NCBI GenBank assembly: GCA_033578775.1
Contig: JAVQWY010000014.1
Coordinates: 64,001-102,856, forward strand
Origin: Myxococcales bacterium
GTDB lineage: Bacteria; Myxococcota_A; Polyangia; Palsa-1104; JAEUJZ01
DNA length: 38,856 nt
Direction: 5' to 3'
Part shown: positions 9,562 through 36,127 of the stretch, piece by piece
How the letters are laid out: each line of letters opens with the position of its first letter
How positions within the stretch are numbered: the first letter of the stretch is position 1
Program-made: the position numbers and the translations under genes
Notes under the pieces: generated by a model
What the model saw: only the letters and a program-made list of their open reading frames with translations
Told to the model about the DNA's origin: nothing
The model's database searches: none

Positions 9562-11259
9562 ATGAAAATCGTTTGCGAAAACTGCGGCACCAAATACTCG
9601 ATCGCGGACGAAAAGGTCAGCGGGAAAGTATTCAAGCTGCGGTGCAAAAAGTGTAGCCATGTCATCGTGGTGCGCGGAACCACCGAGAGCGAGGCGGCGC
9701 ATCAGGAGGCGCCAGCCCCAGCTGCACCCGGGCCAGCGTCGGAGCAGGCGAGCTCAGCCGGCCCGCCCCCCGATGCCGTCTGGCATTTGGTCATCGATCG
9801 GGAGCAGGTCGGCCCGATGACCGCGGCCGAAGTTCGCAACAAATTTGCCAGCGGAGTCATCGACGGCGAGACCTACATCTGGCGCGAGGGGTTTGAGGAC
9901 TGGGTGAAGCTGTCTTCCGTCGCGGAATTTCAGGATCTCGGCGGCGCGCAGCGCGGCAACGGCCAGGAGCAGACCACGCGCCGCTCGGACAGGGCGGACC
10001 TGTTCCGCGACGCTGGTCGGGACGAGGCACCAGCGCCCGGGGCGGACCTGTTCAACCCCCCCATGACCTCGTCGCCCACGGCCGCCACCATCGTGGCCAG
10101 CAGCCCAACATCGTCTGCCAGCGCCCCCTTGCGGTCCCAGCAGCCCCCAGGGGACCTTGTGAGCGCCAGCAGCGGTCCCTCTCCGGCGGTGGACATCCGG
10201 TCGCTCACCGGAGCGCGCAACGAGAACTCCGTTCTCTTCTCGCTCAACAACCTGCAGGCGCTGGCCAGTGGGTCGAGTTCCAGCTCTTCCGGTGGGGCCG
10301 GTGCGCGACCCGGGTATGCAGACTCCCGGACCGAGGGGTCTGGCCTGATTGACATCCGCGCCATGGCAGCGCAGACGCTGTCGGCGAGCAGCAAATTCGG
10401 CACAGCCGGCAGCAAACCGGATGACCTGCCGATGGTCAACGAGGCGCCCCTGTTTTCTCCGGTGGCGCCAGCGATGTTGATGCCAATTCCCGAGCCGCCT
10501 GGCATGCCAAAGTGGGTCTGGGCGGTGGTCGGGGTCGGCGGTGTGATGTTCCTGGCGATGACGGCGGTCATCATCTGGGTGGTGCGCTCATCGCCGCCCC
10601 CAGCGCCGGCGCCACAGCCGACGGTCGTTGTGGCCAGTGGCCCTGGAGGCATGGCACAGCCAGGTTCTGCGCCGACAGGGCAGCCAGCCTCCCCCGGTCC
10701 GACCGCGACCGAGTCTGGGCCAGGCAAGCCCACTGCCAAGGACGAGGGGGCAGTGGCAGAGGCCGAGCGCAAGCGGCGTGCGCGGGAGGCGCGGGACAAG
10801 GAGCGCGAGAAGCCTTCGGCCCCTAAGGAGAAGGAGCCCATCGCCTCCACCACCCCAGTGGCTCCCGCCGTGGAGCCCCCTGCTGAGCGCCGGCAGCCCA
10901 AGCCCAAGCCCAAAGACGATCTCGATGCTCTGCTCGACAGCGCCACGGGAGGGCCGAGCGCCGCTCGTCCCAAGGTCGAGTCGGTGCGGAAGGATGCACC
11001 CGAGCAGCTCAGCATGGACGAGATCAAGAGCGTGCTCAAGGGGGTCAACGCCTCGGTGCAGTCCTGCAGTCAGGGCAACCCCGGGACGTTCATTGTCAAG
11101 ATGACCATCGGCCGCAACGGCCGCGTCACCGACGCTTCCGTCCCGGGCAAGGCCGGTGATCCCACTGCAGATTGCGTGGTGCGCGCTGTCAAGGCCGCTC
11201 GTTTCCCTGAATTCAGTGGTGATCCGCAGTCCCTGAGCTACCCCTTCATCCTGCGATAG
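9562..11259 (+). CDS. MJ0042-type zinc-ribbon / GYF(DUF4339)-like membrane protein with Pro/Ser-rich linker and TonB-C-like C-terminal domain
   Basis: N-terminus MKIVCENCGTKYSIADEKV...KLRCKKCSHVIVV has the double CxxC. WHLVIDREQVGPMTAAEVRNKFASGVIDGETYIWREGFEDWVKLSSV is GYF-like. There is one TM (VWAVVGVGGVMFLAMTAVIIWVV) and a low-complexity P/A/S region. C-terminus FIVKMTIGRNGRVTDASV...CVVRAVKAARFPEF resembles a TonB C-terminal fold. Confidence 0.65.
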   Translation: MKIVCENCGTKYSIADEKVSGKVFKLRCKKCSHVIVVRGTTESEAAHQEAPAPAAPGPASEQASSAGPPPDAVWHLVIDREQVGPMTAAEVRNKFASGVIDGETYIWREGFEDWVKLSSVAEFQDLGGAQRGNGQEQTTRRSDRADLFRDAGRDEAPAPGADLFNPPMTSSPTAATIVASSPTSSASAPLRSQQPPGDLVSASSGPSPAVDIRSLTGARNENSVLFSLNNLQALASGSSSSSSGGAGARPGYADSRTEGSGLIDIRAMAAQTLSASSKFGTAGSKPDDLPMVNEAPLFSPVAPAMLMPIPEPPGMPKWVWAVVGVGGVMFLAMTAVIIWVVRSSPPPAPAPQPTVVVASGPGGMAQPGSAPTGQPASPGPTATESGPGKPTAKDEGAVAEAERKRRAREARDKEREKPSAPKEKEPIASTTPVAPAVEPPAERRQPKPKPKDDLDALLDSATGGPSAARPKVESVRKDAPEQLSMDEIKSVLKGVNASVQSCSQGNPGTFIVKMTIGRNGRVTDASVPGKAGDPTADCVVRAVKAARFPEFSGDPQSLSYPFILR

Positions 11260-12107
11260 CGGCGCCACGGCAGGAAGTGCAGAAACCCAGGCTCACACCG
11301 GATACCGACGAGTTGTCCCTTCATCCTACGATAGCGACGCCATCCCAACCCTGCCAGTGCGAGGAGCCCCATCAGGCCTGCCCCTGCCAGCAGGAGCAGA
11401 CGATGCGGCACCAGCGAAGGCGGCGCCCGCTCGAGAAAGCGCACTGTGATCGAGCGGTCCGACAGCGACGACGACGGCGGACCATAGAAACGAAACGTCG
11501 TGATGCGCTGCGGCTGCTCCGGTCGCGGTGCTCCCTGACAGGACTCGATCAGCTCTATACCCGGCCCCGGCTCGACGAGGATTTCGATCTCACCTGCCGG
11601 CGCAAGCCCGACGCGATCTTCATAGCGAAGCTCCTGCACCTGTCCAGATGCCACGCGCACCGAGGCAGATGTATCGACCGAAAGCGCGGCCGGGGCGACG
11701 GCATCGCCGGCAAGCCCGATCGTGGGCTCTGCAAAATGGAGCGCCACGGGCTGGCCGTTTGCCTCCAGCCGGAGTCCGGCCCTGGCCTCCCCTAGGAGCT
11801 GCCGCGCCAGGGCAGCCCCCTCGGCCTCACTGAGGCGTCCGTCGCCATCGCGATCGGCCCCCCGGCGCAGGTTGAACGCCGGGATGTCACCCACCATGAT
11901 GGTATAGGTGAGCCGCACCTGCCCACGTGGCATGAGCGCCAGCCTGCTGTATCGGTTCACCACGGAGAGGGTAAACTGCGGATGCCCTGGTGCCGGAGCC
12001 GCACCGCCAAGAATAACCAGGGCCATGGTCAGGGCAGCGCGCCATGAACAGGGCACCATGCCGCGCAGGTAACACGAGGACTGCCCCATGGCAAGCACCC
12101 GGTGCAT
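11238..12107 (-). CDS. secreted EF-hand (DxDxDG) protein with C-terminal TM anchor; probable start at 12057
   Basis: Signal peptide MVPCSWRAALTMALVILGGAAPAPG. EF-hand loop DRDGDGRLSEAE. C-terminal TM LLLLAGAGLMGLLALAGLGW followed by an RRYRRMKG tail that appears twice because of the DNA repeat. The 3' end overlaps the convergent zinc-ribbon gene by 22 bp. Confidence 0.45.
   Translation of the reverse strand: MHRVLAMGQSSCYLRGMVPCSWRAALTMALVILGGAAPAPGHPQFTLSVVNRYSRLALMPRGQVRLTYTIMVGDIPAFNLRRGADRDGDGRLSEAEGAALARQLLGEARAGLRLEANGQPVALHFAEPTIGLAGDAVAPAALSVDTSASVRVASGQVQELRYEDRVGLAPAGEIEILVEPGPGIELIESCQGAPRPEQPQRITTFRFYGPPSSSLSDRSITVRFLERAPPSLVPHRLLLLAGAGLMGLLALAGLGWRRYRRMKGQLVGIRCEPGFLHFLPWRRYRRMKG
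11241..11346. repeat. imperfect ~30-bp direct repeat (period 76 bp) spanning the stop codon of the zinc-ribbon gene
   Basis: ccccttcatcctgcgatagcggcgccacgg (11241-11270) versus tcccttcatcctacgatagcgacgccatcc (11317-11346). Confidence 0.7.
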
Positions 12108-12227
12108 CCGCGCGCTCGCCGCCCTGGCTTATCGCGGGAAGCGCCTCTGGTTTCCGCGGCTCGCTGCAGGATGCATAGCTGGGGAAGCCATTGCGACGGC
12201 TGCCGCCCCATCGTATGGTAGGGCGCT

Positions 12228-17316: not shown

Positions 17317-17345
17317 GAAAACCTCCTTGTAGCTAATTATACTTC

Positions 17346-18166
17346 TTATACTTCGCACCCTCGTCCCAGCTCCGCCACCAGCTGTGGATCGCACAGCGCG
17401 CGCAGCTCCTCCTCGAAGCGATAACGCCGCGCCCAGTGGTACCGCGCACGCAGCGCCGCGACCTCGTCGGTAAGCACTGCCGGGTGCACCATGACCTCGA
17501 CGGTTAGGCCATCGGCCCCTCGCAGCAGCGCCCGCAGCCGCCGGGCGTCCAGCGCGCCGCTGTCAGCAAACCCAACAAAGCGGTCAGCAAACCGAAGCCC
17601 AGCGGCCCGGACCCGCTGCCGGGCAGCCAGCGACAAGGCCGACAGCGCCAGCCACCCGGGGCCGCGCAGCAGGGTGCGGGCGTGCGGCCGTTCCAGCGGC
17701 AGGCGCAGGTAGGGCACCCGGTAGCGCACCGCCAGCGAGATGGCCACCTCCAGCAGCGGTGGCAGCAGATGGACATGCTTGTGCGAGTCGAGGTGGCTAA
17801 GCTGTAAGCGGGCGTCCAGCGCCCGCTCGATCTGCGCCCTCCACTCGGCGCGCACGGCCTCGCTGTCGAGCCGCCCGGCGAGCCAGAGCCGCAGCAGCGC
17901 CCCCGGTCCCTCGTGAAAGGACCCGTCCGGACGGCACAGCGCCCCCAGGCGGGCGGGTGGCAGCAGCGGCCGGCCCTCGCACAGGGTCAAATGCACCCCA
18001 ACGCCCAGACGCGGACAGCGCCGGGCCACAGCCACCGCACCGTCAAATGCTGCGCCGTTGCACAGCAGCGATGCCCGGCGTAAAATGCCCTGCAGGTGGG
18101 CGCGCTCCACGGCCTGGTTGTGCCCCTTGGTCCAGCCGAAGTCGTCGGCGTTGACAAGAAGGTCCA
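17346..18166 (-). CDS. YdjC/ChbG/HpnK-family carbohydrate deacetylase-like protein
   Basis: LVNADDFG and SHLDSHKHVH motifs. TTG start at 18164-18166 with a GGGAGG RBS. The ORF tool's upstream extension was rejected. Confidence 0.7.
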
Positions 18167-19477: not shown

Positions 19478-20605
19478 ATGCATCCACTATACTGCCAGAC
19501 GAAGACCGTGCGTCCTTATGCCCGTCGGAAAACCACGCCGCAGCTCGTTGTAGTCGCGGCGCTCCTGGCGCTGCTGGTACACGGGCTTGTGCTGCTCCTG
19601 CTGGTGGGCAGCGGGGCCCTGCAGACGCTGCCGCTTGGACGCACCGTGGTGGCCGAGCGCACCGAGGGGTTGCTGCGCTTGGACGAGCCACCCATCGAGA
19701 TCGAGTGGCTGGTGGATCAGCTGGACCGGCCCCAGCAGGAAACCCCTGAGGAGCAGCGCCGCCGACAGGAGGAGGAAACCACGCGCCCCGAGGGACAGGT
19801 GGTGGACATCGCCCGCCCGGCCCTGGAGCAGCGTCCCGACCAGGCGCGCTTTCTGGCCGAGTACGACTCGACGGTCGAGCGGGAGACGCGAGGACCCCCA
19901 GGGCGGTCCCAGGCCGGCGCCCTCCAGCCCGCTGCCCGGCCCACCCCTCCGCCCCGCCCAGCTCGTCCTGGCCGCGCTGGCCCCCCCGGGCCGCTGGCGC
20001 TCCGGTCGGCCTCGTCGCCCCCCGCGGCTGAGAGCAGCCAGGACCTGGCCCCCGATGGCACGGCCCGGTGGCAGCCCGGCGGCCCCCATCGGACGCCCTC
20101 CCAGCCCGGCGGTGGGCAACCCGCCGCCCCTGCCACGCCCAACTTGTTGGCCACCCCCGAGCTCCTGGAGCGGGTCCTGGGCCAGGGAGCCGGCTCGCCC
20201 GACTACCTGAAGGACATCGACGACGGCGAGTACACCGCCCTAAACGCCAAGCGGTGGAAGTTCGCCTCGTTTTTCAACCGGCTCAAGCAGGCCGTGGCGG
20301 ACGAGTGGCACCCGGACACCGTCTACCTGCGCCATGATCCGTCGGGCAACATCTACGGCATCAAAGATCGCATCACGGTGCTGCGCGTGCACCTGAAGCC
20401 CGACGGCCGCATCGCCGCCATCCAGATCCTGCGCCCTTCGGGCGTCGAGTTTCTCGACGATGAGGCCGTGGGTGCCTTCAAGCGTGCCCAGCCCTTCCCC
20501 AACCCCCCCCAGCAGCTGGTCGAGCCCGACGGGTTGATCCGGTTCAATTTTGCCTTCATCTTTGAGTTGTCGGGTCGGACCTCATTCAAGGTGTTTCGCT
20601 ACTGA
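19478..20605 (+). CDS. TonB-family energy transducer
   Basis: N-terminal TM (LVVVAALLALLVHGLVLLLLVG), Pro-rich spacer, and C-terminal TonB domain (YGIKDRITVLRVHLKPDGRIAAIQILRPSGVEFLDDEAVGAFKRAQPFPNPP). The ORF tool's upstream GTG at 19448 is also possible. Confidence 0.65.
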   Translation: MHPLYCQTKTVRPYARRKTTPQLVVVAALLALLVHGLVLLLLVGSGALQTLPLGRTVVAERTEGLLRLDEPPIEIEWLVDQLDRPQQETPEEQRRRQEEETTRPEGQVVDIARPALEQRPDQARFLAEYDSTVERETRGPPGRSQAGALQPAARPTPPPRPARPGRAGPPGPLALRSASSPPAAESSQDLAPDGTARWQPGGPHRTPSQPGGGQPAAPATPNLLATPELLERVLGQGAGSPDYLKDIDDGEYTALNAKRWKFASFFNRLKQAVADEWHPDTVYLRHDPSGNIYGIKDRITVLRVHLKPDGRIAAIQILRPSGVEFLDDEAVGAFKRAQPFPNPPQQLVEPDGLIRFNFAFIFELSGRTSFKVFRY

Positions 20606-20690
20606 GGCCTCCCAGCGCGGCAACCGCGTCCTCGTAGCGCTCGACTGCCAGGACCATTCAAGGTGTTTCGCTACTGAGGCCTCCCAGCGC
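20583..20690. repeat. perfect 36-bp direct repeat x2 separated by a 36-bp unique segment, covering the stops of two convergent genes
   Basis: cattcaaggtgtttcgctactgaggcctcccagcgc at 20583-20618 and at 20655-20690. Confidence 0.9.
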
Positions 20691-22312: not shown

Positions 22313-23893
22313 TCAGAAGCGGAACTGCACCGCCAGGCGCGCCTCGCGCTCCAACGTGGTGGGGGCGTGCAGGTCGGTGCCGAGGCGGCGCTCCATGAAG
22401 AAGGCGGTCACGGTGCCGATGCTGCGATAAAAGTACAGGTGCACCGCGGCGCGCCACTGCAGCTCGTCCAGCTGGCGCTGCATCTCTGAGCTTAGCATGG
22501 CCGGCGGGTGGTCGAACCCCGAGGCGACGAACTGGCCCACGTCCATGCCCAGCATGAGCCACTTGGACACCGCCAGCACACCGACCTGGATGTTGTAGGC
22601 CAGCCCCCAGGAGCCGAACTCAATCTCGCGCTTGCCATAGGTTTCGGCCTGGATGAGCAGGCGCCGGTAGCGCAGCACGGCGAACAGGTTGGCTGCGGGG
22701 AAGCGCTCCAGCGGCCGCTGCTCCCACTTGACGCCCAGGGCTAGGGCCACGGCCAGCGGCACCGGCGTGTACAGCAGCGGGCTGTCCCATCGGCTGAAGA
22801 AGCCAACCACGTTCCAGTGGATCTGAGCGGCCACCTGGTAGGCGAAGTTGCTGTTGTCCTCGGTCAGGAAGGTGCCGCCGACGTTGCCGGTAAAGCGCCC
22901 GGTGCCGGCCGAGGCCAGGGCACGGTACAGCAGGCGCCCGCCCCGGTCGATGGGCCCGCCAAACTCCACAGCCACGCTGTAGGGCTGCTGGAAGGCGTTG
23001 ACCAGATAGAAGGGCGGGTCGAGCAGAAGCTGCTTGTAGATCGAGATGGCCAAGATGGACGACAGGCCGCCGGTGCCGCTGCTGACGTTGGCGTAGTGGC
23101 CGCGCTTGCCCAGCGGCACCTGAAACATGGCAAAGGTCAGCCGCGGCGTGCGCTCGGCGCGCACGTTGAGCAGGAAGAACGAGTTGCGGATAAACGGGAT
23201 GGGGCCGAGCACGCGCAGCTGCAGGCGCGAAAAGCGGGCGTCGAAGGTGTTGTCCTGCGCCTGGTAGGCGACCTCGGTGCGTGCCACCACGGAGAAGGAG
23301 AAGTTGGGCTGCCCCTGGCAGACGGAGATGGAGGGGTCGAAGCGGCAGCCAAAGTCCTGGCAGTCGGTGCGGCCGTCGCCGTCGTTGTCGATGCCATCGG
23401 CGCACAGCTCGTCGCTGCGTTCGCCGTCCTTGTCGTTGCCGCGGCCGATGAGATCTTCTACGGACATGCCTGGGCCCAGCTCGGGCACCGGCTCCGACGC
23501 CATGGGCTGCCCCGTGCCCTGAGCGCCGCCGGTTGCCAGCGTGGCCTGGGTGCGCTGATAGGAGCCCTGGCACACAGAGATACCGGGCACCTGACAGTCC
23601 GGGTCATCGCAGTCCATCTGGCCGTCGCCATCGTTGTCGATCCAGTCGCTGCATAGGGAATTGGTGGACTCGGGCCGCCCGTCGGGACGGCAGTGGGGCG
23701 AGTCGGCGCAGTCGGCATCGCCGCAGTCATAGACAGTATCGCCATCGTTGTCGATGCCATCGTTGCACTCGGTCTCGCGCGCCGGCTCGGCCGCAGCGAC
23801 AGGTCTGGCCGGGCACAGCAGCACCGCCAGCAGCGCAGACAAGACGACCATGTCCCCTCGGGCCGTGGGTCGCATCGGTCGCATGGCTCGCAT
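22313..23893 (-). CDS. outer-membrane beta-barrel protein with N-terminal Cys-flanked DxDxDG repeats
   Basis: Signal peptide. Four copies of C.DGIDNDGDG..DC.D.DC. The C-terminal ~350 aa have beta-barrel texture and end in the Phe-terminal AVQFRF. Confidence 0.6.
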   Translation of the reverse strand: MRAMRPMRPTARGDMVVLSALLAVLLCPARPVAAAEPARETECNDGIDNDGDTVYDCGDADCADSPHCRPDGRPESTNSLCSDWIDNDGDGQMDCDDPDCQVPGISVCQGSYQRTQATLATGGAQGTGQPMASEPVPELGPGMSVEDLIGRGNDKDGERSDELCADGIDNDGDGRTDCQDFGCRFDPSISVCQGQPNFSFSVVARTEVAYQAQDNTFDARFSRLQLRVLGPIPFIRNSFFLLNVRAERTPRLTFAMFQVPLGKRGHYANVSSGTGGLSSILAISIYKQLLLDPPFYLVNAFQQPYSVAVEFGGPIDRGGRLLYRALASAGTGRFTGNVGGTFLTEDNSNFAYQVAAQIHWNVVGFFSRWDSPLLYTPVPLAVALALGVKWEQRPLERFPAANLFAVLRYRRLLIQAETYGKREIEFGSWGLAYNIQVGVLAVSKWLMLGMDVGQFVASGFDHPPAMLSSEMQRQLDELQWRAAVHLYFYRSIGTVTAFFMERRLGTDLHAPTTLEREARLAVQFRF

Positions 23894-23899
23894 CCTTGG

Positions 23900-25123
23900 C
23901 TACTCACATACGCGACGGCCTGGGCACACCGTCACCAGCGGGTTGTGGCTGCAATCCCAGTCGCGGCAATCTATGAACCCGTCCAGGTCGTTGTCGAGCC
24001 CGTCGGAGCAGCGGGCATTGGCGGCGGCCGCATCGGGGCCGAGGCTCTCTTGGCAGGCCTGGCGCACATCGATGGTGGCGGCCTGGCTGCAGGCCCGGTC
24101 CTCGCAGTCGATGTAGCCGTTGCCATCGTTGTCGAGGCCGTCGGTACAGCGAGCGAAGGTATTCTCCAGGCGGGCAGCGCAGTAGGCCATCAGGTCGGGG
24201 TCGCCTGAGCGCGAGCAGGAAAAGTCGGCGCAGTCGGTGTAGCCGTTGCGGTCGTTGTCCACCCCATCGCTGCAGCGCGCCAGCGTGTTTTCCAGCCGCT
24301 CGGCGCAGTAGGCACGCACGGCCGCGTCAGGGGAGGTGGCGCAGGCGCGGTCGGCGCAGTCGGTGTAGCCGTTGCGGTCGTTGTCCACCCCATCGCTGCA
24401 GCGCGCCAGCGTGTTTTCTGGCAACAGGTCAGCGCACAGGGCCTGGATGGCCGGGTCGGCCGAGCGGGCGCAGTCGAAGTCGCGGCAGTCGGTGTAGCCG
24501 TCGCCGTCGTTGTCGAGGCCGTCGGCGCAGCGCTCGGGGGTGTTTTCTGGCATGCGGCAGCGCTCCAGGCGCACGCAGTCGGGGTCGCGGCAGTCGATGT
24601 GGCCGTCGCCGTCGTTGTCCAGTCCGTCGCTGCAGCGGGCGTCGGTAAGTTCAGTGCAGACGGTGACAAAGGGGCTCTGGCGGCAGCCGAAGTCGCGGCA
24701 GTCGGTGTAGCCGTTGCGGTCGTTGTCCACCCCATCGCTGCAGCGCGCATCGGTATTTTCGATGATGCAGCAGGTCTCGGGGATGGCGCGGCAGCTGGCC
24801 TCGCCGCAGTCCCAGTTGCCATCGCCGTCGTTGTCCACCTGGTCGGTGCAGGTGGCGTAGGTGGCCTCGCGACGGGGGGGTTCAGGGATGGGGGGAACCA
24901 TCTCGCCGCAGAAGGTGGAGGTGAAGCGGCAGTCGGGGTCGCGGCAGTCGACCTGGCCATCGGCGTCGTTGTCGAGGCCGTCGCTGCAGTTTTGATCCTC
25001 GGTCTCGTAGCCCAGCACCGGATAGGGCGGGCGCTCAAAGCAGCCCAGCGCCAGCAGGGCGGCAGCAGGCAGTACGGCCACCAGGCGGCCGGGACGCGGC
25101 GAATCGTCAGATGGGCGGCGCAT
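23900..25123 (-). CDS. lipoprotein composed of ~9 tandem ~41-aa Cys-flanked DxDxDG (Ca-binding-loop-like) repeats
   Basis: Lipobox LLALGC. Repeats of ENT[LF]ARCSDGVDNDRNGYTDCAD..C....P.....YCA. The underlying DNA repeats are near-identical. Confidence 0.65.
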   Translation of the reverse strand: MRRPSDDSPRPGRLVAVLPAAALLALGCFERPPYPVLGYETEDQNCSDGLDNDADGQVDCRDPDCRFTSTFCGEMVPPIPEPPRREATYATCTDQVDNDGDGNWDCGEASCRAIPETCCIIENTDARCSDGVDNDRNGYTDCRDFGCRQSPFVTVCTELTDARCSDGLDNDGDGHIDCRDPDCVRLERCRMPENTPERCADGLDNDGDGYTDCRDFDCARSADPAIQALCADLLPENTLARCSDGVDNDRNGYTDCADRACATSPDAAVRAYCAERLENTLARCSDGVDNDRNGYTDCADFSCSRSGDPDLMAYCAARLENTFARCTDGLDNDGNGYIDCEDRACSQAATIDVRQACQESLGPDAAAANARCSDGLDNDLDGFIDCRDWDCSHNPLVTVCPGRRVCE

Positions 25124-25160
25124 GTACCCTCGCTTTCTTCCCCTTACCTCTCACTTGATC

Positions 25161-26105
25161 TCACTTGATGAGGCAGGCGGCTCGCAACGGACCATACCGC
25201 CGCTGGAACGGCACATGGTACATGCAGGAGGTCTCCTGGCCGGGGTCGCTGCCCAGGGCGCCTGCATCCCTGTAGCGCTCCAGCAGCTGCCGCAGCGGTT
25301 CGCGCAGCGCCTGGCGCACAGGGCGGCCCAGGACGCGGTAGCGCACGTACATGTGGATGGCCGCGCGCAGCTCCTCCACGGAGGCCTGGCGGACCTCGGG
25401 ACTGGCCGCTGGGTCGGCGCGCAGGCGCTCCAGCAGGCGCGCCTCGGTCTCTGGATTGCTCGGGTACTGGCGGTGGCAGATGCGCGTGCACTCGGCATAT
25501 TGCTCGTGGTGCACCCAGGGCACGGAGTGGCCGTCTGCGGTGGAGACGAGGCGGTTGAAGGTACCGCGGCCCTCGGTGTCCTCCTCGCGGGAGTGGAGCG
25601 AGGTGAGCAAGAAGGGCGGCACGCCATGGGCCCACAGGCCACGCCGGGCCTGCATCGCCTCGCGCTGAGCGCGCAGCAGCACGGGATCGCCGGGCTCGTC
25701 GGTGACGCTGAGGACATGGGCGAGGCCGCTGCGCACTTGGGTCTCGGCCAGATCCGGGCACCACAGCAGCGTCCGACCATAGCCGTCGGGGCGGTCTTGG
25801 ATGGTACAGTGCCACACGCCGCGCCGCGCCTGGAGCGTGGCCATCTTGGCCAGCACGTACAACTCCTCTGGCGTCCAGCTTCCCCACTGGTGCACCGGGC
25901 CGTGGGCCTCCAGCGCGTTGAACCCGGCCAGGCGGGTGCGCATCCCGCGGTGGGGCCCGTCCAGCACGCGGAAGCTGTCGCCGTCGTTGAACAGCACCGG
26001 GGTGGGCTGGCCATTGATGAACACCAGGCTGGCTGCCGGATCGGCCCCTGCCGGCGCGGACGCCGCAAGCAGGACCACGAGCAGCGCGGAGCGGGATGGC
26101 AACAA
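25161..26105 (-). CDS. secreted thermonuclease (staphylococcal-nuclease-like, SNase fold) with C-terminal extension
   Basis: Signal peptide. FNDGDSFRVLDGPHRGMRTRLAGFNALE, GLAHV and RRGLWA motifs of the SNase family. TTG start. Confidence 0.7.
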   Translation of the reverse strand: MLPSRSALLVVLLAASAPAGADPAASLVFINGQPTPVLFNDGDSFRVLDGPHRGMRTRLAGFNALEAHGPVHQWGSWTPEELYVLAKMATLQARRGVWHCTIQDRPDGYGRTLLWCPDLAETQVRSGLAHVLSVTDEPGDPVLLRAQREAMQARRGLWAHGVPPFLLTSLHSREEDTEGRGTFNRLVSTADGHSVPWVHHEQYAECTRICHRQYPSNPETEARLLERLRADPAASPEVRQASVEELRAAIHMYVRYRVLGRPVRQALREPLRQLLERYRDAGALGSDPGQETSCMYHVPFQRRYGPLRAACLIK

Positions 26106-26442: not shown

Positions 26443-27912
26443 GTGTCTCATCTCAGGACGGCGATGAGCCATCCGTTCCGGCGGGCCAAGATCGTGTGCA
26501 CGCTCGGGCCGGCCAGCCGCTCGCCGGAGGTCATTGGCCATCTTATCGACGAGGGCATGGACGTTGCGCGGCTCAATTTCTCCCACGGCAGCCCGGATGA
26601 ACACCGCCGCATGGTGGCCCTGGTGCGGGAGCAGGCGCGGCTGCGCGGGCGCCCTGTGGCGGTGCTGCAGGACCTGCAGGGCCCCAAGATTCGCATCGGC
26701 AAGATGGCGCCGGGCACGGTGCTGGAGGCCGGTGCCGAGTTTGTGATCACGACGCAGGAGATCGTGGGCGATGCGACGCGCGCCTCGACCACCTACCGGG
26801 AGCTGCCACGTGACGTGCAGGTGGGCGACATCATGCTATTGGACGACGGGATGCTGCAACTCGAGGTGCTGGAGGTGGCTGGGGAGGAGGTCATCACCCG
26901 CGTGCTGGTGGGCGGGCCGCTGTCGGACAACAAGGGCATCAACCTGCCCGGCGTGCATGTGTCTGCGCCCTCGCTGTCGGACAAGGACCGGGCGGACCTG
27001 GTGCTGGGGCAGGAGCTGGGGGTGGACTTCGTGGCGCTCTCGTTTGTGCGCTCGCCGCAGGATGTGATCCAGGCCAAGGAGGCCATTCACGATGCGCGCC
27101 TGGCGCTGGGTGGGCGGCCGCGGCGGGCGCCCACCCCGGTCATCGCCAAGATCGAGAAACCCGAGGCGGTGGAACACCTGGCCGAGATCATTGAGGTGGC
27201 CGACGGCATCATGATTGCCCGCGGAGACCTGGGGGTGGAGCTGGGGCCAGAGAAGGTGCCGCTCATCCAGAAGTCGGCCATCGAGCTGACCAACCAGCAT
27301 GGCAAGCTGGTCATCACGGCGACGCAGATGCTGGAATCGATGACCGTCGCGCCACGGCCGACACGCGCCGAGGCGAGCGATGTGGCCAACGCGATTCTCG
27401 ACGGGACCGATGCGGTCATGCTGTCTGGCGAGACGGCCTCGGGGCGCTATCCGCTGCTGGCGGTGCGGACCATGGTGCGCATCGTGCGCGAGGTGGAGCA
27501 GAGCCCGCGCTTTCACCAGCTTATGGCGCGGCAGTCGTGGCCCAAGCTGGCTGTGACCAGCAACGCCGTGGCCCATGCGGCGGTGGTGGCGTCGCGACTG
27601 GTCAAGGCCCCGGTCATCGTCTCGGTGAGCGATTCTGGCGGGGTGGTGCGTTTGCTATCCGAGTACCGTCCCGAGGCGCTGCTGGTGGCGCTGTCGCGGC
27701 ACGAGGAGGTCTACCGTCAGCTGGCTGCCTACTGGGGCGTCGTGCCCATGATCGCACCCGAGGTGCAGACGGAGCAGGAGATGGTGGACTTTATCTTGCC
27801 CATGCTGCGGGAGCGGGGCTATGCCCGCAGCGGCCAGGCGGTGGTGATCACGATGGCGCTGCCCTATGGCAGCGGCCTGCCCACCAACACGATGCAGATC
27901 TTGCAGGTGTAG
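26443..27912 (+). CDS. pyk: pyruvate kinase
   Basis: RRAKIVCTLGPAS, NFSHGS and MIARGDLGVE. GTG start at 26443 with an AGGAGG RBS; the ATG at 26464 is an alternative. Confidence 0.95.
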   Translation: MSHLRTAMSHPFRRAKIVCTLGPASRSPEVIGHLIDEGMDVARLNFSHGSPDEHRRMVALVREQARLRGRPVAVLQDLQGPKIRIGKMAPGTVLEAGAEFVITTQEIVGDATRASTTYRELPRDVQVGDIMLLDDGMLQLEVLEVAGEEVITRVLVGGPLSDNKGINLPGVHVSAPSLSDKDRADLVLGQELGVDFVALSFVRSPQDVIQAKEAIHDARLALGGRPRRAPTPVIAKIEKPEAVEHLAEIIEVADGIMIARGDLGVELGPEKVPLIQKSAIELTNQHGKLVITATQMLESMTVAPRPTRAEASDVANAILDGTDAVMLSGETASGRYPLLAVRTMVRIVREVEQSPRFHQLMARQSWPKLAVTSNAVAHAAVVASRLVKAPVIVSVSDSGGVVRLLSEYRPEALLVALSRHEEVYRQLAAYWGVVPMIAPEVQTEQEMVDFILPMLRERGYARSGQAVVITMALPYGSGLPTNTMQILQV

Positions 27913-28013
27913 GCGCCGGTCCGCCTGGGGCAGCGCGATCGGTCTGCTGCTGTCCCGCCTGGGTCAGAGCGTTGCGGTTGGTGTGGCGCCGGTCCGCAGG
28001 GGGGAGCGCGACC
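27907..28013. repeat. diverged (~85% identical) ~33-bp direct repeat with 74-bp period starting on the pyk stop codon
   Basis: gtgtaggcgccggtccgcctggggcagcgcgatc (27907-27940) versus gtgtggcgccggtccgcaggggggagcgcgacc (27981-28013). Confidence 0.6.
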
Positions 28014-28078
28014 TCAGCGTAGAGGGGCTCTTCCGGCGGTGCTTGCAGGGGTGGACCCGGGCCGGCCCGGGGCGGCTG

Positions 28079-29770: not shown

Positions 29771-29933
29771 GGTGCTCCTTGTGCGTGCTGGCCCATCATA
29801 CTGGCCAGGGGCCGTAAGGTCCAGGCCACCAACCGGCGGGTGGCGCTTGGGCCGGGACGAGGGTCTGCGCCCTTTGCCCACATAGGGGCGAGCTGGACCC
29901 ATGGGGGGGCGGGGCGGCGGGAAGGGCTTGCGC

Positions 29934-30156
29934 ATCCAGGCCCCAGAAGAGTGCAGGGGCTGACGCAAAGGAGCGAATGCAGGCTTGAGTAGCGATAAAC
30001 CGGGTGAATCCAGGCCCCAGAAGAGTGCAGGGGCTGACGCAAGGGAACCTGGGCCTGGCGGAGGAGACTAGGGCTTGCGCAGGAACTTAGCTCCCGTGGC
30101 CTGTCTCCCGGAGTAACAGGGACCTGGGCCTGGCGGAGGAGACTAGGGCTTGCGCA
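29934..30156. repeat. two adjacent repeat-spacer-repeat structures (35-bp perfect repeats A and B, each x2, spacers 39-40 bp)
   Basis: Repeat A (atccaggccccagaagagtgcaggggctgacgcaa) lies at 29934-29968 and 30008-30042. Repeat B (acctgggcctggcggaggagactagggcttgcgca) lies at 30047-30081 and 30122-30156. B copy 2 contains the sterol methyltransferase stop codon. Confidence 0.9.
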
Positions 30157-31168
30157 CCAGAAAGTAGAACATCGGCGTGAAGATGCCGGTTCGCCCCCCC
30201 TCGACGAGGTAGCCCGCCCCGCGCTGCAGGAACGAGCTGACCGCGGTGGCGCCCTTGGGTGCCACGCCCACGGCCTCCAGGCTGCGGACCATCTGGTGGG
30301 TCAGCCATCGGCCCACGGGGCTGGAGCGGAACCCGCTGGGGGTGTACCAGGGGGCTGCCAGGGGCAGGTACCAGGGCGTCTCCGGGTCGGCGGTCAAGGC
30401 CCGGTCCTCGCTTTCCAGCACCTCGAAGCCGACCGCGCGCAGCGCTTCCAGCACCTCCGGCACCGTCGCCAGCTCGGGCAGCGCGTTGCCTTCCTCGATG
30501 CCCTGCCGGATCTCCCGATGGCGGGGGTTTTGCGAGTCGTACCGGTCGGTCACGCACCACTCGTAGGCGGCAAAGTGCGCGCCCGGCTTGAGCACGCGGA
30601 AAACCTCGCCGTAGATTTGCCGCTTGTCCGGCGCGTGGCAGGTGGCCTCGATGGCATAGGCGGCATCGAAGGTGCCATCTGGCACCGGAACGGACAGAAA
30701 GTCGCACTTGAGGAGCTCGCACAGGTGGCTCAGGCGGGCCGCCTCGTTGTGTTTGCGGGCCCGTGCGATCTGGTAGTCGTTGTTGTTCAGGCCGACGATG
30801 GTGGCGCCGCTAAAGCGGGCAATGGAGCGCATCGGCCCCCCCACCCCGCAGCCGAAATCGGCCACCCTCATGCCCGGCCGCAAGCCCAGGCGCAGCGCCA
30901 AAAAGTGCTCGTAGCGCGCGATGGAAGCAGCAAATGCCTCGCCGCGGAAGCGCGGCGCAAAGTGAAAGGACTGTCCCCAGCCGAACTCATAGAAATCCGT
31001 GACAAGATCGTAAAAGTTGTTGACCAGCGTCGCATAGGACTGTTTGCGACGTTCCGTGCTGCCGCCCCGGGAACGGTCATACTGGGCGGTGTAGTTGTCC
31101 ACGGTGGCCTGAACCTCGTCCCGGGCGAGGGATGTCTGACAGATGTCGGTGACCGATGGTGCGTCCAT
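30143..31168 (-). CDS. sterol 24-C-methyltransferase (ERG6/SMT1 family, SAM-dependent)
   Basis: Near-colinear match to ERG6 hallmark blocks: YEFGWGQSFHFAPRFRGEAFAASIARYEHFLA, FGCGVGGP, VGLNNNDYQIARA, YAIEATCHAP, VLKPGAHFAAYEWCVTDRYDSQNPRHREI, GGRTGIFTPMFYFLVRKP. Start at MDAPSV; the upstream ORF extension was rejected. Confidence 0.85.
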   Translation of the reverse strand: MDAPSVTDICQTSLARDEVQATVDNYTAQYDRSRGGSTERRKQSYATLVNNFYDLVTDFYEFGWGQSFHFAPRFRGEAFAASIARYEHFLALRLGLRPGMRVADFGCGVGGPMRSIARFSGATIVGLNNNDYQIARARKHNEAARLSHLCELLKCDFLSVPVPDGTFDAAYAIEATCHAPDKRQIYGEVFRVLKPGAHFAAYEWCVTDRYDSQNPRHREIRQGIEEGNALPELATVPEVLEALRAVGFEVLESEDRALTADPETPWYLPLAAPWYTPSGFRSSPVGRWLTHQMVRSLEAVGVAPKGATAVSSFLQRGAGYLVEGGRTGIFTPMFYFLVRKP

Positions 31169-31314
31169 GGCTGAGCCCTGTTGCTGTGTGCTGGTAGGAA
31201 ACCCGGAACCCGCGCGGGTGTCAATGTGCGATTCCGCACGGGCGGGAACCTGTTGACCCCAGCCCGCGCTGGAGGCAGCATGAGGCAATTTGTTTGATCC
31301 TGCCGGAGCATGCC

Positions 31315-32652
31315 ATGAGCGGAGAGCCTGAGCAGCCTGTTCCTGTCCCTGTCTATGACGTTTGCGTTGTCGGTGCCGGCCCGAGCGGTGCCACGTGTGC
31401 ATACTATCTGGCGCAGCGCGGCAAGCGGGTTTTGTTGCTGGAGAAAAAGACCTTTCCGCGCGACAAGCTGTGCGGCGATGCCGTCTGCACCAACGCCCAG
31501 ATCCACCTGGACCGCATGGGCGTGCTTCGGGAGCTAGAGGAGGAGGGCACCGGTCACTGGGCTGCAGTGGGGGGCCTGGTCAGCCCGCGGCGCATCGGGT
31601 TCATTGGCAACTCGGCCAAGCAAAATGGCCGCCCGCTGGTGATGGCCGTCAAGCGCATGATCCTCGACGAGAAGATTGCGCGCGCGGCGCAGCGGGCCGG
31701 GGCCCTTCTGGTGGAAAACACCACCGTGACCGGTGCCTCTCTCTCGCGGGCCGAAGGGGTGTGGACGGTCCAGGCAACCCGCAACGGGGCGGCCGTGTCC
31801 TACCGGGCGCGGGCGCTGGTGGCGGCAGATGGGGCGCTGTCGCGGCTCACCCAGGCCCTTGGCATCCCGACGCCGCCGCCAGACAGCGTGTGCAGCCGGG
31901 CCTACATCAAGGCCGGCACGCATCAGTTCGACATGGACGGCGTGGTCTTTTATGAGCTGGACATGGTGCCCGGCTACTGCGCCCTGTTCCGCGAGGCTGG
32001 CGGCGACGTCAACTACTGCGTCTATATCATCCCGGGCGGGCGCTGCTCCATTGACGATCTTTACGAGATGCACCACCGCATCCTCCGCGACAACCCGTAT
32101 GTGCGTCGGGCGGTCGGTCCCCACGCGGTCATCGACAAGATGAAGGGGGCACCGCTGCGCCTGGGTGGCATCCGCAAAAGCTACCACGACCACCTGCTCA
32201 TTGTCGGCGATGCGGCCGGACACATTGACCCGCTCACCGGCGAGGGCATCCATCATGCCATGGACGGTGGGTACCTGGCCGCCGAGGTGCTGTGCGAGGC
32301 CCTGGCAGTCGGCGACCTCAGCGAGCGGTTCCTGCGCCGCTATCAGGACCGCTGGATGCGCGCCTTTGGCCGCGATTTCTTCTGGTCCAAGAAGATGGCC
32401 CAGGTCTTTGCGAAGGCGCCGATTCTGGTCGATGCCAGCGCCGCGGTCATGCAGCGCAAGGGCGCGGACTCGCTGCTGGAATGGGGCCGTGTCATGACCG
32501 GCGTGGCCCCCAAGCGCTACTTTCTGCGGCCGGAGGTGGCGCTGCCCCTTCTTGTGGAGACGGGACGCCAGGTCGTCCGGCAAGCCTTGGGGAAGATCGT
32601 TCCAGATGTCAGGGTCTCTCTCGATGGAGTGGTTCGGCCCTGGATGCCCTAG
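31315..32652 (+). CDS. geranylgeranyl-reductase-family FAD-dependent oxidoreductase
   Basis: YDVCVVGAGPSGATCAYYLAQRGKRVLLLEKK is the Rossmann GxGxxG. LCGDAV. LIVGDAAGHIDPLTGEGIHHAM is GGR/ChlP-like. Alternative start at 31294. Confidence 0.8.
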   Translation: MSGEPEQPVPVPVYDVCVVGAGPSGATCAYYLAQRGKRVLLLEKKTFPRDKLCGDAVCTNAQIHLDRMGVLRELEEEGTGHWAAVGGLVSPRRIGFIGNSAKQNGRPLVMAVKRMILDEKIARAAQRAGALLVENTTVTGASLSRAEGVWTVQATRNGAAVSYRARALVAADGALSRLTQALGIPTPPPDSVCSRAYIKAGTHQFDMDGVVFYELDMVPGYCALFREAGGDVNYCVYIIPGGRCSIDDLYEMHHRILRDNPYVRRAVGPHAVIDKMKGAPLRLGGIRKSYHDHLLIVGDAAGHIDPLTGEGIHHAMDGGYLAAEVLCEALAVGDLSERFLRRYQDRWMRAFGRDFFWSKKMAQVFAKAPILVDASAAVMQRKGADSLLEWGRVMTGVAPKRYFLRPEVALPLLVETGRQVVRQALGKIVPDVRVSLDGVVRPWMP

Positions 32653-32662: not shown

Positions 32663-33061
32663 TTCGGGGCGGGGGCCCCGGTTCGCGGGGCAGGGGGGCA
32701 GCGGACTCAGGTGGGCCGGGAAAATATCCCAAGGCGCTTGAGAGGCGAGGGAGAGCACAAGGCTCGAGCCGGTGTCAATCAGGTTTGCCCCCGGGAAAAT
32801 ATCCCAAGGCGCTTGAGAGGCGAGGGCCCCGGTCCGCGGGGCAGGGGGGCAGCGGACCCGAGCCGGCTGGCGCCGCAGGGCTCTCCGGCTGGGGGCGGAG
32901 CAGGCGCGTCGGGAAGGACACGGGGCCCTGCGCCCGGGCACCCGCTGGGGCTGCGGCCGTGTCATCATCCTGCCATATCCTGCCATCGGCGGGCGGAGAT
33001 GCGCGCTACAGGAGATCCCTCGCCCCCCGCTGGGGCTGCGGCCGTGTCATCATCCTGCCAT
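32663..33061. repeat. complex nested direct-repeat region filling the intergenic space
   Basis: C is a 34-bp repeat with 1 mismatch at 32673-32706 and 32824-32857. D is a 36-bp perfect repeat at 32716-32751 and 32791-32826. E is a 36-bp perfect repeat at 32941-32976 and 33026-33061, overlapping the downstream ATG. Confidence 0.9.
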
Positions 33062-34271
33062 GCCATCCCTGCCCGCGCCTGCTGAGCAGGCGAAGCATTT
33101 CTGCCTGGAGGCGGGCGTGGTGTTTCTGAACCACGGCTCGTTTGGCGCCTGTCCCCGTCCTGTGCTGGCGGAGCAGGACCGGCTGCGCGTCCGGCTGGAG
33201 CAGGAGCCGGTGCGCTTTTTCCTCCAGGAGGCGCCGGTGCTGCTCGGGCGGGCCCGCGCGGCGCTGGCCGAGCTGGTGGGGGCCGACGAGCAGGATCTGG
33301 TCTTTGTGGCCAATGCCACCACGGCTGTGAACGCCGTGCTGCGCTCGCTGGATCTCCGCCCGGGAGATGAGCTGCTCGAGACGGACCACAGCTACAACGC
33401 CTGCCGCAACGTGCTGCGCTACCTGGCGGCGCGCACCGGCGCCCTCGTCCGCACCGTCGCGCTGCCCCTGCCCATCTCCGGCCCCCAGGAGGTGGTGGAG
33501 CGGGTGCTGCAGGAGGTCACGCCGCGCACGCGCCTGGCGCTGCTGGACCACGTGACCAGCCCCACAGCGCTGGTGCTGCCCGTGGCCGAGCTGGTACGCG
33601 CCCTCCAGGAGCGCGGGGTGGACACGCTGGTGGACGGCGCGCATGCCCCCGGGATGCTGCCCCTGGACCTGCGCGCCCTGGGCGCGGCCTACTATGCTGG
33701 CAACTGCCACAAGTGGCTGTGCACGCCCAAGGGTGCTGGGTTCCTGTACGTCCGTCGGGACCGCCAGGTGGGCCTGGTGCCGCCGGTCATCAGCCATGGC
33801 TACAACGCGCCGCCGTCTGAGCAGCCGCGGCTGCACGCCCTCTTTGACTGGACCGGCACGGTGGACCCGACGCCGGCGCTGTGCGTGCCCGCGGCGATTG
33901 CGTTTCTGTCCGGCCTGATGCCGGGCGGGCTGGCAGCGCTGCAAGAGCGCAACCGACAGCTGGCCTGTCAGGCCCGGCAGGTGCTGTGCGCAGCCCTGGG
34001 CCTGCCGCCGCCCTGCCCCCAGCAGATGCTGGGCAGCATGGCCGCGGTCCCCTTGCCCGACGAGGACAGGGGGACGCCGCGGTCGCCGCTCCAGCCCGAT
34101 CCGCTGCAGACGGAGCTGCGCGAGCGGTTTGGCATCCAGGTGCCGATCATGTCCTGGCCTGCATGGCCCCACCGCCTGCTGCGCATCTCTGCCCAGGCCT
34201 ACAACAGCCTGGCCCAGTACGAGTACCTGGCAGAGGCTCTGGGCACCCTGCTGGGGGCGTCCCGCCGGTAG
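33060..34271 (+). CDS. class V aminotransferase-fold PLP enzyme (isopenicillin-N-epimerase / cysteine-desulfurase-like)
   Basis: FLNHGSFGACP, ANATTAVNAV, HVTSPTALVLPV and GNCHKWLCTPKG (K is the PLP lysine). Confidence 0.8.
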   Translation: MPSLPAPAEQAKHFCLEAGVVFLNHGSFGACPRPVLAEQDRLRVRLEQEPVRFFLQEAPVLLGRARAALAELVGADEQDLVFVANATTAVNAVLRSLDLRPGDELLETDHSYNACRNVLRYLAARTGALVRTVALPLPISGPQEVVERVLQEVTPRTRLALLDHVTSPTALVLPVAELVRALQERGVDTLVDGAHAPGMLPLDLRALGAAYYAGNCHKWLCTPKGAGFLYVRRDRQVGLVPPVISHGYNAPPSEQPRLHALFDWTGTVDPTPALCVPAAIAFLSGLMPGGLAALQERNRQLACQARQVLCAALGLPPPCPQQMLGSMAAVPLPDEDRGTPRSPLQPDPLQTELRERFGIQVPIMSWPAWPHRLLRISAQAYNSLAQYEYLAEALGTLLGASRR

Positions 34272-34404: not shown

Positions 34405-34505
34405 AATGTTTGTCGAAAAAATAGCGATCATCTGGGCGCATATTTGGGGTTGACATTAAACGGACTCTATATAATACATAGACATAGCTTCATCGCTCGA
34501 GGAGG
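34405..34505 (+). promoter_or_regulatory. AT-rich island with sigma-70-like hexamers upstream of the ECF sigma gene
   Basis: TTGACA at 34450-34455 and TATAAT at 34470-34475, with a short 14-bp spacer. GGAGG RBS at 34501-34505. This is the only strongly AT-rich ~100 bp in this part of the window. Confidence 0.35.
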
Positions 34506-34514
34506 CGTTGGTCC

Positions 34515-35096: not shown

Positions 35097-36025
35097 CCCC
35101 CCAGCTGGGCCTGGTCTGCCTGTCGGCCGGACCCGAGGTCCGCTTCCGCACCACCACCCGTGCCTTCCTGCACCGCCACCGCCCCTGCGAGGCCCAGCAG
35201 CTGCTCCGGGCACTCTACCGCGACAACCTCGCCCGCCTGGAACGCGCCTTCGCCTTCTGCGCCTCGCTCGGCATCTCGCTCTACCGCATGCCCTCCAGCC
35301 TCTTTCCCTTCGCCGACGCCGAGGGCGCCCCCCTGCTCGAAGAGCTCGCCGAGCCGCTGGCCGCCCTGGGCCGCCAGGCCCGCCAGCAAGGCCTCCGTCT
35401 GCTGCTCCACCCCGACCAGTTCGTCGTCCTCAGCTCCGACTCGGCCGCCACGGTGCGCAACGCCCACCTCATGCTCGCCATGCAGGGACGCCTGATGGAC
35501 CTGCTCGACCAGCCCCGCTCCCCCTGGGCCGCCATCAACATCCACGGCGGCAAGGCCGGACGCCTGGCCGCCCTGGTCCGCGAGATCCGCTCCCTGCCCG
35601 ACGCCGTGCGCACCCGCCTCACCCTGGAAAACGACGAGCGCGCCTACGGCAGCGCAGAGATCCTAGAAGCCTGCCAGCAGGCCGGCGTGCCCATGGTCTT
35701 CGACGCCCACCACCACCTTGTTCACGACCGCCTGTCCTCCTACGACGACCCGAGCATCGCCCACTGGCTGGCTGCCGCCCGCCAAAGCTGGCCCGACCCC
35801 TCCCTGCAGGTGGTCCACATCTCCAACGGCCGCGACCACCTGCAGGACGCCCGCCACAGCGACTGGATCACCCACATGCCCACCGCCTACCGCCACGCCC
35901 CCTGGATCGAGGTGGAGGCCAAAGCCAAAGACGAGGCCATCCGCCGCCTCCGCCAACGCTGGCGCCCCCTGCGAGCCCGACCCTCCGGCCCCCGCGCGCC
36001 CGGTGCCCAGCAAGCAAACCGCTAG
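35093..36025 (+). CDS. uvsE: UV DNA damage endonuclease
   Basis: LGLVCLS, SLGISLYRMPSSLFPF, LLLHPDQFVVLSS, NIHGG, LTLENDER and HIS of the UVDE/UvsE family. ATGA overlap with the ECF sigma stop. Confidence 0.85.
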   Translation: MTPQLGLVCLSAGPEVRFRTTTRAFLHRHRPCEAQQLLRALYRDNLARLERAFAFCASLGISLYRMPSSLFPFADAEGAPLLEELAEPLAALGRQARQQGLRLLLHPDQFVVLSSDSAATVRNAHLMLAMQGRLMDLLDQPRSPWAAINIHGGKAGRLAALVREIRSLPDAVRTRLTLENDERAYGSAEILEACQQAGVPMVFDAHHHLVHDRLSSYDDPSIAHWLAAARQSWPDPSLQVVHISNGRDHLQDARHSDWITHMPTAYRHAPWIEVEAKAKDEAIRRLRQRWRPLRARPSGPRAPGAQQANR

Positions 36026-36127
36026 GGCCCCCCGCCAGCCGCCCCCCCGCACGCCGCTCCCCCCAAGATGCCCTGCGAGCCCGACCCTCCGGCCCCCGAC
36101 GCGCCCGGTGCCCAGCAAGCAAACCGC
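35967..36127. repeat. 56/57-bp direct repeat (1 indel) with 104-bp period; copy 1 is the last 18 codons of uvsE
   Basis: ccctgcgagcccgaccctccggcccccg(a)cgcgcccggtgcccagcaagcaaaccgc at 35967-36022 and 36071-36127. Confidence 0.85.

Follow-up and report, generated by a model that had tools for sequence, protein, structure and literature searches.

Cas1-Cas2 reportedly makes neo-CRISPR loci in E. coli in vivo by off-target integration, as described by Nivala, Shipman and Church in 2018 (Nat Microbiol). Off-target integration in vitro is known for several systems, including the Cas1-Cas2 of P. furiosus (PMC6698737). The S. thermophilus type III-A system acquires new spacers that measure 32-42 bp and peak at 36, independently of a protospacer-adjacent motif (PAM) and of orientation, and at least 30% of its host-derived spacers come from rRNA and tRNA genes (PMC8860593). 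With type III-A in S. epidermidis, rRNA and tRNA hotspots need just Cas1-Cas2, and these spacers are lost with the Csm effector (PMC8860600). Among the reverse transcriptase (RT)-Cas1 systems, that of V. vulnificus has rRNA as its most abundant spacer source (PMC6821258) and that of M. mediterranea has a repeat of 35 bp (PMC6821258, PMC11014452). Off-target activity of CRISPR integrases is mostly a laboratory observation, and its natural cost and evolutionary role are open questions. Here we analyse a stretch of 38,856 nt (the window) from the metagenome-assembled genome (MAG) of a Myxococcales bacterium (assembly GCA_033578775.1, contig JAVQWY010000014.1, positions 64,001 to 102,856), in which direct repeats of about 36 nt flank inserts of similar size at several loci. 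We propose that these repeat-insert-repeat (R-S-R) loci are probably scars of off-target (ectopic) integration by a CRISPR Cas1-Cas2-type integrase. This reading had been put forward in an earlier note on the same DNA, and it is now supported by inserts derived from 23S rRNA, by an empty site in a relative, by repeats that are native sequence and by repeat boundaries that were hit again.

Anatomy of the loci and origin of the inserts

The R-S-R loci were recovered with a repeat finder and with an offset scan of our own across the window, and every locus named in the earlier note was retrieved (Table 1). At five loci (A-E), perfect direct repeats (R) of 35-36 nt surround a unique insert (S) of 35-40 nt, and the architecture that the earlier note had described as common to five loci was found as a perfect repeat pair at each. 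At A, D and E, where the bases flanking it differ on both sides, the repeat measures exactly 36 nt; at B, C and D' it is 35-39 nt. The inserts measure 35-41 nt overall. The R-S-R period is 72-76 nt across eight events, with 85 nt at locus E owing to a 10-nt slip. The constant duplication length and the 72-76-nt period amount to ruler-like behaviour. The looser loci of the earlier note, F, G and H, are all real, but H does not fit the shared geometry; with an R of 57 and an S of 48 it is set apart and is possibly unrelated to the other events.

Table 1. R-S-R events of the window, and inserts aligned to 23S rRNA (positions counted from the first nucleotide of the window; lengths in nt)
Feature	Position	Strand	Parts or source	Remarks
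Event A	20583..20690		R_A1 20583-20618, S_A 20619-20654, R_A2 20655-20690	R 36, S 36
Event B	29934..30046	+	R_B1 29934-29972, S_B 29973-30007, R_B2 30008-30046	
Event C	30044..30156	-	R_C1 30044/30047-30081, S_C 30082-30121, R_C2 30119/30122-30156	
R_C0	29906..29934		degenerate third R_C copy	right boundary GGGCTTGCGCA at same cut as R_C1, R_C2
Event D	32716..32826		R_D1 32716-32751, S_D 32752-32790, R_D2 32791-32826	R 36, S 39
Event D' (older)	32668..32854	+	R'1 32668-32703, insert 32704-32743/4, R'2 at 32819-32854	
Event E	32941..33061		R_E1 32941-32976, slip 32977-32986, insert 32987-33025, R_E2 33026-33061	
Event F (old)	11235..11342		R_F1 ~11235-11267, insert ~11268-11309, R_F2 ~11310-11342	period 75, ~85% repeat identity
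Locus G (decayed)	27900..28076		copies 27900-27938, 27973-28011, 28042-28076	periods 73, 69; 3 repeats, 2 spacers
Locus H, atypical	35967..36127		repeat 35967-36022 / 36071-36127 (56/57 nt) around 48-nt C-rich segment	period 104-105
S_B	29973-30007	+ (sense)	23S ~E. coli 1250-1284	32/35, Sphingomonas
S_D'	32704-32744	+ (sense)	23S ~E. coli 1613-1653	36/41, Methylomagnum
S_C	30082-30118	reverse complement (antisense)	23S ~E. coli 926-965	25/31, Sphingomonas

The repeat of event B is 39 nt long with one mismatch; its perfect part is 35 nt (29934-29968 and 30008-30042), which then leaves an S of 39. Event C has a perfect repeat of 35 nt (30047-30081 and 30122-30156, S 40), or one of 38 nt with one mismatch. 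In D' (32668-32706 and 32819-32857), B (29969-29972) and C (30119-30121), 2-4 junction bases match the flank as well as the insert or rRNA, and because of this the repeat and insert lengths of these three events are ambiguous by 3-4 nt. The shared bases may reflect microhomology at integration or chance. Non-templated bases at the insert ends, as a mark of reverse transcription, were considered and dropped, since the extra 3-4 nt fit repeats of 38-39 nt with one mismatch better. The repeats of D' (36-39 nt) now lie 151 nt apart, a distance composed of 76 nt plus the 75 nt of the nested event D.

At locus E, an R of 36 nt is combined with an S of 49 nt, which consists of the 10-nt slip and a unique insert of 39 nt. 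Tandem Repeats Finder (TRF) revealed the slip as the last 10 nt of R, repeated as the first 10 nt of S. Perfect micro-duplications of the same kind as this slip (32967-32986) are also present at 17337-17354, where TTATACTTC occurs twice between the start of PFK and the end of YdjC, and at 25149-25169, where TCTCACTTGA occurs twice in intergenic DNA.

To identify the inserts, we searched them in concatenated form against plasmid records using blastn and then aligned them to the rRNA operons of E. coli, Sphingomonas and Methylomagnum. S_B and S_D' matched unannotated conserved DNA in the chromids of unrelated bacteria in the blastn search. Alignment to 23S rRNA gave scores of 29 for S_B, 31 for S_D' and 19 for S_C, compared to 11.6 ± 1.1, 11.8 ± 1.4 and 11.8 ± 1.2, respectively, in shuffled inserts. 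In addition, a 24-mer of S_C is identical in two divergent metagenomic 23S genes (L091 and L092), with which S_C agrees over 26 nt. By sequence similarity, the inserts of B, C and D' are thus contiguous fragments of 23S rRNA, taken in both orientations, and their source regions share no common flanking motif. By our own estimate, a large myxobacterial genome is rDNA to the order of one part in a thousand, against which a 23S origin for three of the nine inserts is an enormous enrichment. The alignment to the rRNA operons found no further rRNA-like piece in the window, and control loci gave just short, near-threshold matches within rRNA coordinates (E 0.08-0.15). Rfam, run on the whole window (E<=10) and on 29925-30165 alone, did not detect the rRNA pieces and is too insensitive for fragments of 35-41 nt.

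For the inserts of A, D, E, G and H no source was matched in the searches, and locus H shows no similarity to rRNA. Insert F resembles a neighbouring 23S stretch weakly and below significance. The GC content of inserts D (59%) and F is rRNA-like, at ~0.6 compared to 0.68 for the window. The 23S genes of L091 and L092 were of no help in mapping the remaining inserts. No match was found for the exact cores of S_A, S_D and S_E in viral contigs or for the exact 35-mer of S_B in metagenome contigs, and against tRNA (a set of just nine tRNAs) the inserts scored at background.

An empty counterpart of locus E was found in a relative, contig L081 of the Logan collection (SRR27730024), which encodes an aminotransferase 87% identical in amino acid sequence to that of the window. 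The intergenic region before the aminotransferase is 129 nt in L081 compared to 407 nt in the window. R_E is present there just once, immediately ahead of the ATG and with 28 of 31 nt identical, and the S_E, S_D and S_D' inserts have no counterpart. After removal of the three events E, D and D', the window aligns end to end with L081. Judged from this alignment, L081 is an empty site for locus E and the repeats are native local sequence; for this locus, the comparison with close relatives that the earlier note had proposed came out as one R_E and no insert. At the other loci no relative came close enough for such a comparison: for A, B and C, the closest TonB and sterol-methyltransferase relatives are at just 60-69% identity, the synteny downstream of TonB is not conserved in the relative L085, and the nearest match to the window in the genome-contig collection is at 67% amino acid identity.

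The repeats of different loci are mutually unrelated, with a similarity not above that of shuffled sequences. As the earlier note had claimed, each locus has its own repeat, which is native, locus-specific sequence rather than a member of a repetitive extragenic palindromic (REP) or miniature inverted-repeat transposable element (MITE) family. The inserts are also mutually unrelated (not above shuffled controls), lack terminal inverted repeats and are each found just once in the window. When the same scan was applied to 80 loci of other genomes (1.47 Mb in total, with some 20 MAGs of Myxococcota type, as judged by title, among them), it returned 0 pairs with an R of ~36 nt and an S of 36-40 nt; the pairs that it did return were solely protein-coding tandem repeats. 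Chance is excluded as the source of the R-S-R loci and, on the basis of the empty 1.47-Mb control set, the process is lineage-specific.

At two sites the same repeat was used more than once. The degenerate copy R_C0 scores 17 against R_C (8.4 ± 1.6 in shuffles) and copy 1 of R_G scores 18 against copy 3 (9.7 ± 1.7), values reached by none of 500 shuffles in either case. With event B taken out, R_C0 and R_C1 stand at a period of 73 nt, and the repeat of event B equals the older R_C0-R_C1 spacer plus 1 nt. R_C0/R_C1/R_C2 and the three R_G copies represent re-use of the same repeat boundary, which has given mini-arrays of three repeats and two spacers and resembles array growth. The cluster at 29906-30156 could then have been built in three steps. 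An old event would have made R_C0, a spacer and R_C; event C would have duplicated R_C once more, with a 23S insert and with the right boundary unchanged; and event B would have cut at both ends of the old spacer, duplicating it (39 nt) around another 23S insert. The target duplicated by event D consists of 28 nt of the older 23S insert and 8 nt of R'2, and a partial 23S match recurs at 32798-32819, in the second R_D copy.

Assembly support, gene ends and window content

Logan unitigs and contigs are built at k=31. Logan contig L089 (SRR15826901, 28.9 kb) runs to position 20612 of the window, where it ends exactly 30 nt into R_A1, and contigs L082 (SRR15826901) and L083 (SRR25904939) both end exactly 30 nt into R_C2. 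Because a k=31 graph must branch where a sequence of at least 31 nt has two contexts, the R_A and R_C repeats are present in the reads. Through these contig breaks, the check in raw reads suggested by the earlier note has an answer for R_A from one run and for R_C from two. The window proteins are, furthermore, 100% identical under two NCBI accession sets, MCS69146xx/MCS69148xx and MDW82820xx, which belong to two MAGs; one carries MCS6914684, MCS6914888 and MCS6914879, and the other MDW8282017, MDW8282015 and MDW8282006.

Two further observations concern contig ends. The aminotransferase and the methyltransferase next to it have distant protein numbers in one of the MAGs (MCS6914684 and MCS6914888), whereas in the other their numbers differ by just two; the wide gap implies a contig break in the repeat-rich intergenic region at 32.6-33.1 kb. 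Two contigs of SRR15826901 also have an end that no window repeat explains: L090 at 29871, 63 nt upstream of the B/C cluster, and L082 at 32632, 36 nt upstream of the D'/D cluster. These ends could mark further population-polymorphic events, or they could be due to strain single-nucleotide polymorphisms or to a fall in coverage where the DNA is G-rich. A practical warning is that k=31 assemblies are fragmented by such 36-nt repeats.

The loci are placed on gene ends in a consistent manner. Two convergent, overlapping genes, TonB (+) and a pyridoxal phosphate (PLP)-dependent decarboxylase (-), both have their stop codon within R_A, and each keeps its native end. Stop codons are likewise held by R_C2 (sterol methyltransferase gene, 30143-31402, minus), by copy 1 of R_G (TAG of pyruvate kinase, 26443-27912) and by R_F1 (TAG of the plus-strand gene 9562-11259, left intact), and R_E2 ends in the 'AT' of the aminotransferase ATG (gene 33060-34271). 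The earlier note had remarked on scars that sit on stop or start codons; we see this at A, C, E, F and G and read it as selection. With 36 bp duplicated, both sides retain a complete gene end and insertions within the first or last 36 nt of a gene are harmless; purifying selection alone accounts for the placement. Event F is an in-frame addition of 75 nt, with the minus-strand open reading frame (ORF) 11238-12107 reading through the whole structure, and it has duplicated the C-terminal WRRYRRMKG of the hypothetical protein encoded there. At locus H, the TAG stop of the UvdE gene comes from the insert, in the absence of which the UvdE frame would enter the convergent gene.

The window genes are all housekeeping genes, among them those for a histidine kinase, a sigma-54 activator, purA, PFK, TonB/ExbB/ExbD, pyruvate kinase, sterol methyltransferase and UvdE. 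At 30143-32652, the sterol 24-C-methyltransferase gene (Sterol_MT_C domain) is divergent beside the gene of a FAD-dependent oxidoreductase, and the best relatives of the methyltransferase, at 60-69% identity, are in Myxococcota MAGs. This gene pair suggests a sterol-modifying myxobacterium. A different class of repeats is found at 23333-25000 (minus ORFs 22313-23893 and 23900-25123), where 11-12 tandem coding repeats of 105-138 nt, some of them perfectly identical over 69 nt, encode a Cys/Asp-rich motif (C-x-D-G-x-D-N-D-x-D...) that has no Pfam match at 1e-5. These exact coding repeats also terminate the Logan contig L090 at ~24719.

Proposed ectopic integration and its alternatives

In the mechanism that we favour, the integrase would carry a prespacer of ~35-41 bp, the two 3' ends of which would attack opposite strands of ordinary chromosomal DNA ~36 bp apart, with the spacing set by the ruler of the enzyme. 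Gap repair would then duplicate the 36 bp and leave R-S-R. The cell's own rRNA or rDNA would supply many of the prespacers, in either orientation and with no PAM required. Self-rRNA spacers would be lethal or counter-selected in an expressed array and harmless at an ectopic site without CRISPR repeats. They would be tolerated here because the flanks are not CRISPR repeats, so that no crRNA would be made, and this tolerance would explain why rRNA spacers are seen here and not in natural arrays. Selection would filter the survivors, leaving events gathered in intergenic DNA and on stop or start codons, and some sites would be hit again at the boundaries of earlier events, giving rise to short array-like strings. 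The reaction of a CRISPR integrase accounts for the ~36-bp duplication, the ~36-40-bp insert, the motif-free rRNA sources in either orientation and the re-use of boundaries. The sources of the inserts match the substrate preferences of type III-A and RT-Cas1 systems, and the system from which the candidate integrase stems is most likely type III-like and possibly RT-linked. We infer the identity of the enzyme, and the substrate could have been RNA, captured via reverse transcription, or rDNA.

Several observations weigh against ectopic CRISPR integration. The 38.9-kb window contains no cas1, cas2, RT or integrase gene and no CRISPR array. No source was found for six of the nine inserts, none of which matched phage, plasmid or viral-contig collections. 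A BLAST search of all inserts against phages returned nothing, and neither a phage nor a plasmid protospacer was found. A clear shared site motif is lacking, with a weak 'GG|' tendency at 6 of 12 junctions (six sites). The geometry of locus H breaks the 36 / 36-40 rule, and the duplications of B and C come to 38-39 nt if one mismatch is allowed. A bias towards rRNA is to be expected from any process that samples abundant RNA. Finally, the density of ~8-10 events in 39 kb, or about one per 4-5 kb, is far above reported off-target integration, which means either that the activity is unusually promiscuous and long-lived or that a different enzyme is at work.

The main alternative, which we regard as unlikely, is a non-CRISPR insertion machine, either an integrase with a ~36-bp ruler or a retroelement RT acting on abundant RNA fragments by target priming with a fixed 36-nt nick stagger. 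Such a machine would be even more novel, and it could draw on the rRNA inserts, which any RNA-sampling process would favour, on the lack of a visible cas gene in the window and on an event density unprecedented for CRISPR off-target activity. However, the inserts are internal 23S pieces of uniform size, unlike the products of target-primed reverse transcription, which vary in length and are anchored at the 3' ends of RNA, and the re-used repeat boundaries match the behaviour of a CRISPR integrase. We know of no bacterial retroelement or transposase that gives a fixed ~36-bp duplication together with a fixed ~36-40-bp insert, and casposases leave duplications of 14-15 bp. If the genome has no cas1, the loci would point to a wholly new system, either a ruler-type integrase or one of retro-insertion.

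Break repair with filler DNA, in which a polymerase mending a staggered or resected double-strand break switches by microhomology to an rRNA or rDNA template and back, leaving a local duplication and a captured fragment, is clearly less probable again. In B, C and D', one junction has 2-3 nt that may be microhomology, which would fit this process, as would rRNA in its capacity as the most abundant possible template. The duplications and fillers of break repair vary widely in length, though, while here three clean cases share a repeat of exactly 36 nt and eight events keep to a period of 72-76 nt. Junction microhomology is absent in A, D and E, and the re-use of the same boundary is not accounted for.

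An assembly artefact, arising from chimeric joins or mis-threaded graph loops, has to be considered in a short-read MAG, where perfect repeats close in length to common k-mer sizes are a well-known sign of trouble. We consider it very improbable: the independent k=31 assemblies of two runs break 30 nt into R_A and R_C, the proteins are identical in two NCBI MAGs, and F, G and D' are decayed by point mutations and indels, which assemblers do not produce. In addition, every event keeps the gene ends, which points to selection and not to software. The footprint of a transposon or MITE insertion or excision, or a tandem duplication that later diverged, has next to nothing to recommend it beyond the generic signature of direct repeats around an insert, since the inserts are unrelated, occur once, lack terminal inverted repeats and in three cases are rRNA, and the usual transposon target duplication is 2-15 bp, with 36 bp far outside this range.

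Three candidates of known type were tried and rejected. A bona fide CRISPR array, with several near-identical repeats throughout, a leader and, as a rule, cas genes beside it, does not fit loci that each have their own repeat in at most three copies, with repeats unrelated between loci, and TRF and Rfam detected no array and no CRISPR direct-repeat family in the window. A casposon is a large element with a Cas1-solo and a polymerase, terminal inverted repeats and a 14-15-bp duplication, whereas here non-coding inserts of 35-41 nt go with a duplication of 36 bp. Simple tandem duplication would give R-S-R-S, which, as the earlier note had pointed out, is not observed: there is no second S, and the inserts are absent elsewhere in the window and not locally derived, three of them coming from 23S. 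Just the 10-nt slip in E is a duplication of this type.

Going beyond ectopic CRISPR integration at the loci of the window, the lineage could have a persistently promiscuous type III-like, perhaps RT-linked, integrase that writes self-rRNA and other spacers chromosome-wide. We offer this extension tentatively and consider it rather doubtful. If it is true, the density in the window, extrapolated, would put the number of events per genome at the order of a thousand or higher, intergenic DNA would grow in steps of ~75 bp and gene ends would be remodelled. R_C0/R_C1/R_C2 and G would then start new arrays from non-CRISPR sequence and would represent a natural snapshot of the birth of a CRISPR array.

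Comparison with known adaptation systems

Natural, fixed ectopic integration of rRNA-derived spacers at multiple ages was not found in the literature searched, and such a footprint is hardly documented in nature. A dated series of such events in a wild genome would make the frequency of adaptation misfires measurable from sequence. A genome of this kind would show which substrates are really sampled (among them self rRNA, which true arrays never retain), how sites are filtered by selection and whether ectopic sites can seed new arrays. The events also represent a mutational process through which intergenic regions grow and proteins acquire in-frame tails.

The in vitro activity of P. furiosus Cas1-Cas2 (PMC6698737) has in common with the window loci that both ends are joined to DNA outside CRISPR (full-site integration) at a spacing of repeat length. 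The off-target sites of P. furiosus share features with the CRISPR repeat, whereas the six window sites have no detectable shared motif. Compared to RT-Cas1 of M. mediterranea (III-B) and V. vulnificus (III-D) (PMC6821258, PMC11014452), the window is alike in a possible abundant-RNA source and in the use of both orientations. It differs in that its inserts have no markers of the splice-junction type and no RT gene lies in the window. M. mediterranea RT-Cas1 rarely took rRNA, unlike the window inserts.

The type III-A systems resemble the window in the size range of the inserts, the lack of a PAM, the use of either orientation and the rRNA source, with the rRNA-derived spacers being removed from type III-A arrays by autoimmunity. 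Type III-A integrates at a genuine leader-proximal array repeat, whereas the targets in the window are ordinary intergenic DNA and gene ends. S. epidermidis favours 16S, 5S and tRNA over 23S, while the three sourced inserts of the window are all from 23S.

The neo-CRISPR loci of E. coli are similar to the window loci in four respects: a spacer-sized insert at a non-CRISPR site, a target duplication of about repeat length, a 'repeat' that is the site's own sequence and the possibility of regrowth. They were reportedly obtained by laboratory overexpression of Cas1-Cas2 of type I-E, with 28-bp repeats and 33-bp spacers, and their natural examples are circumstantial. In contrast, the events in the window are natural, fixed and of several ages, number ~8-10 in 39 kb, follow a 36/36-40 geometry and are partly rRNA-derived.

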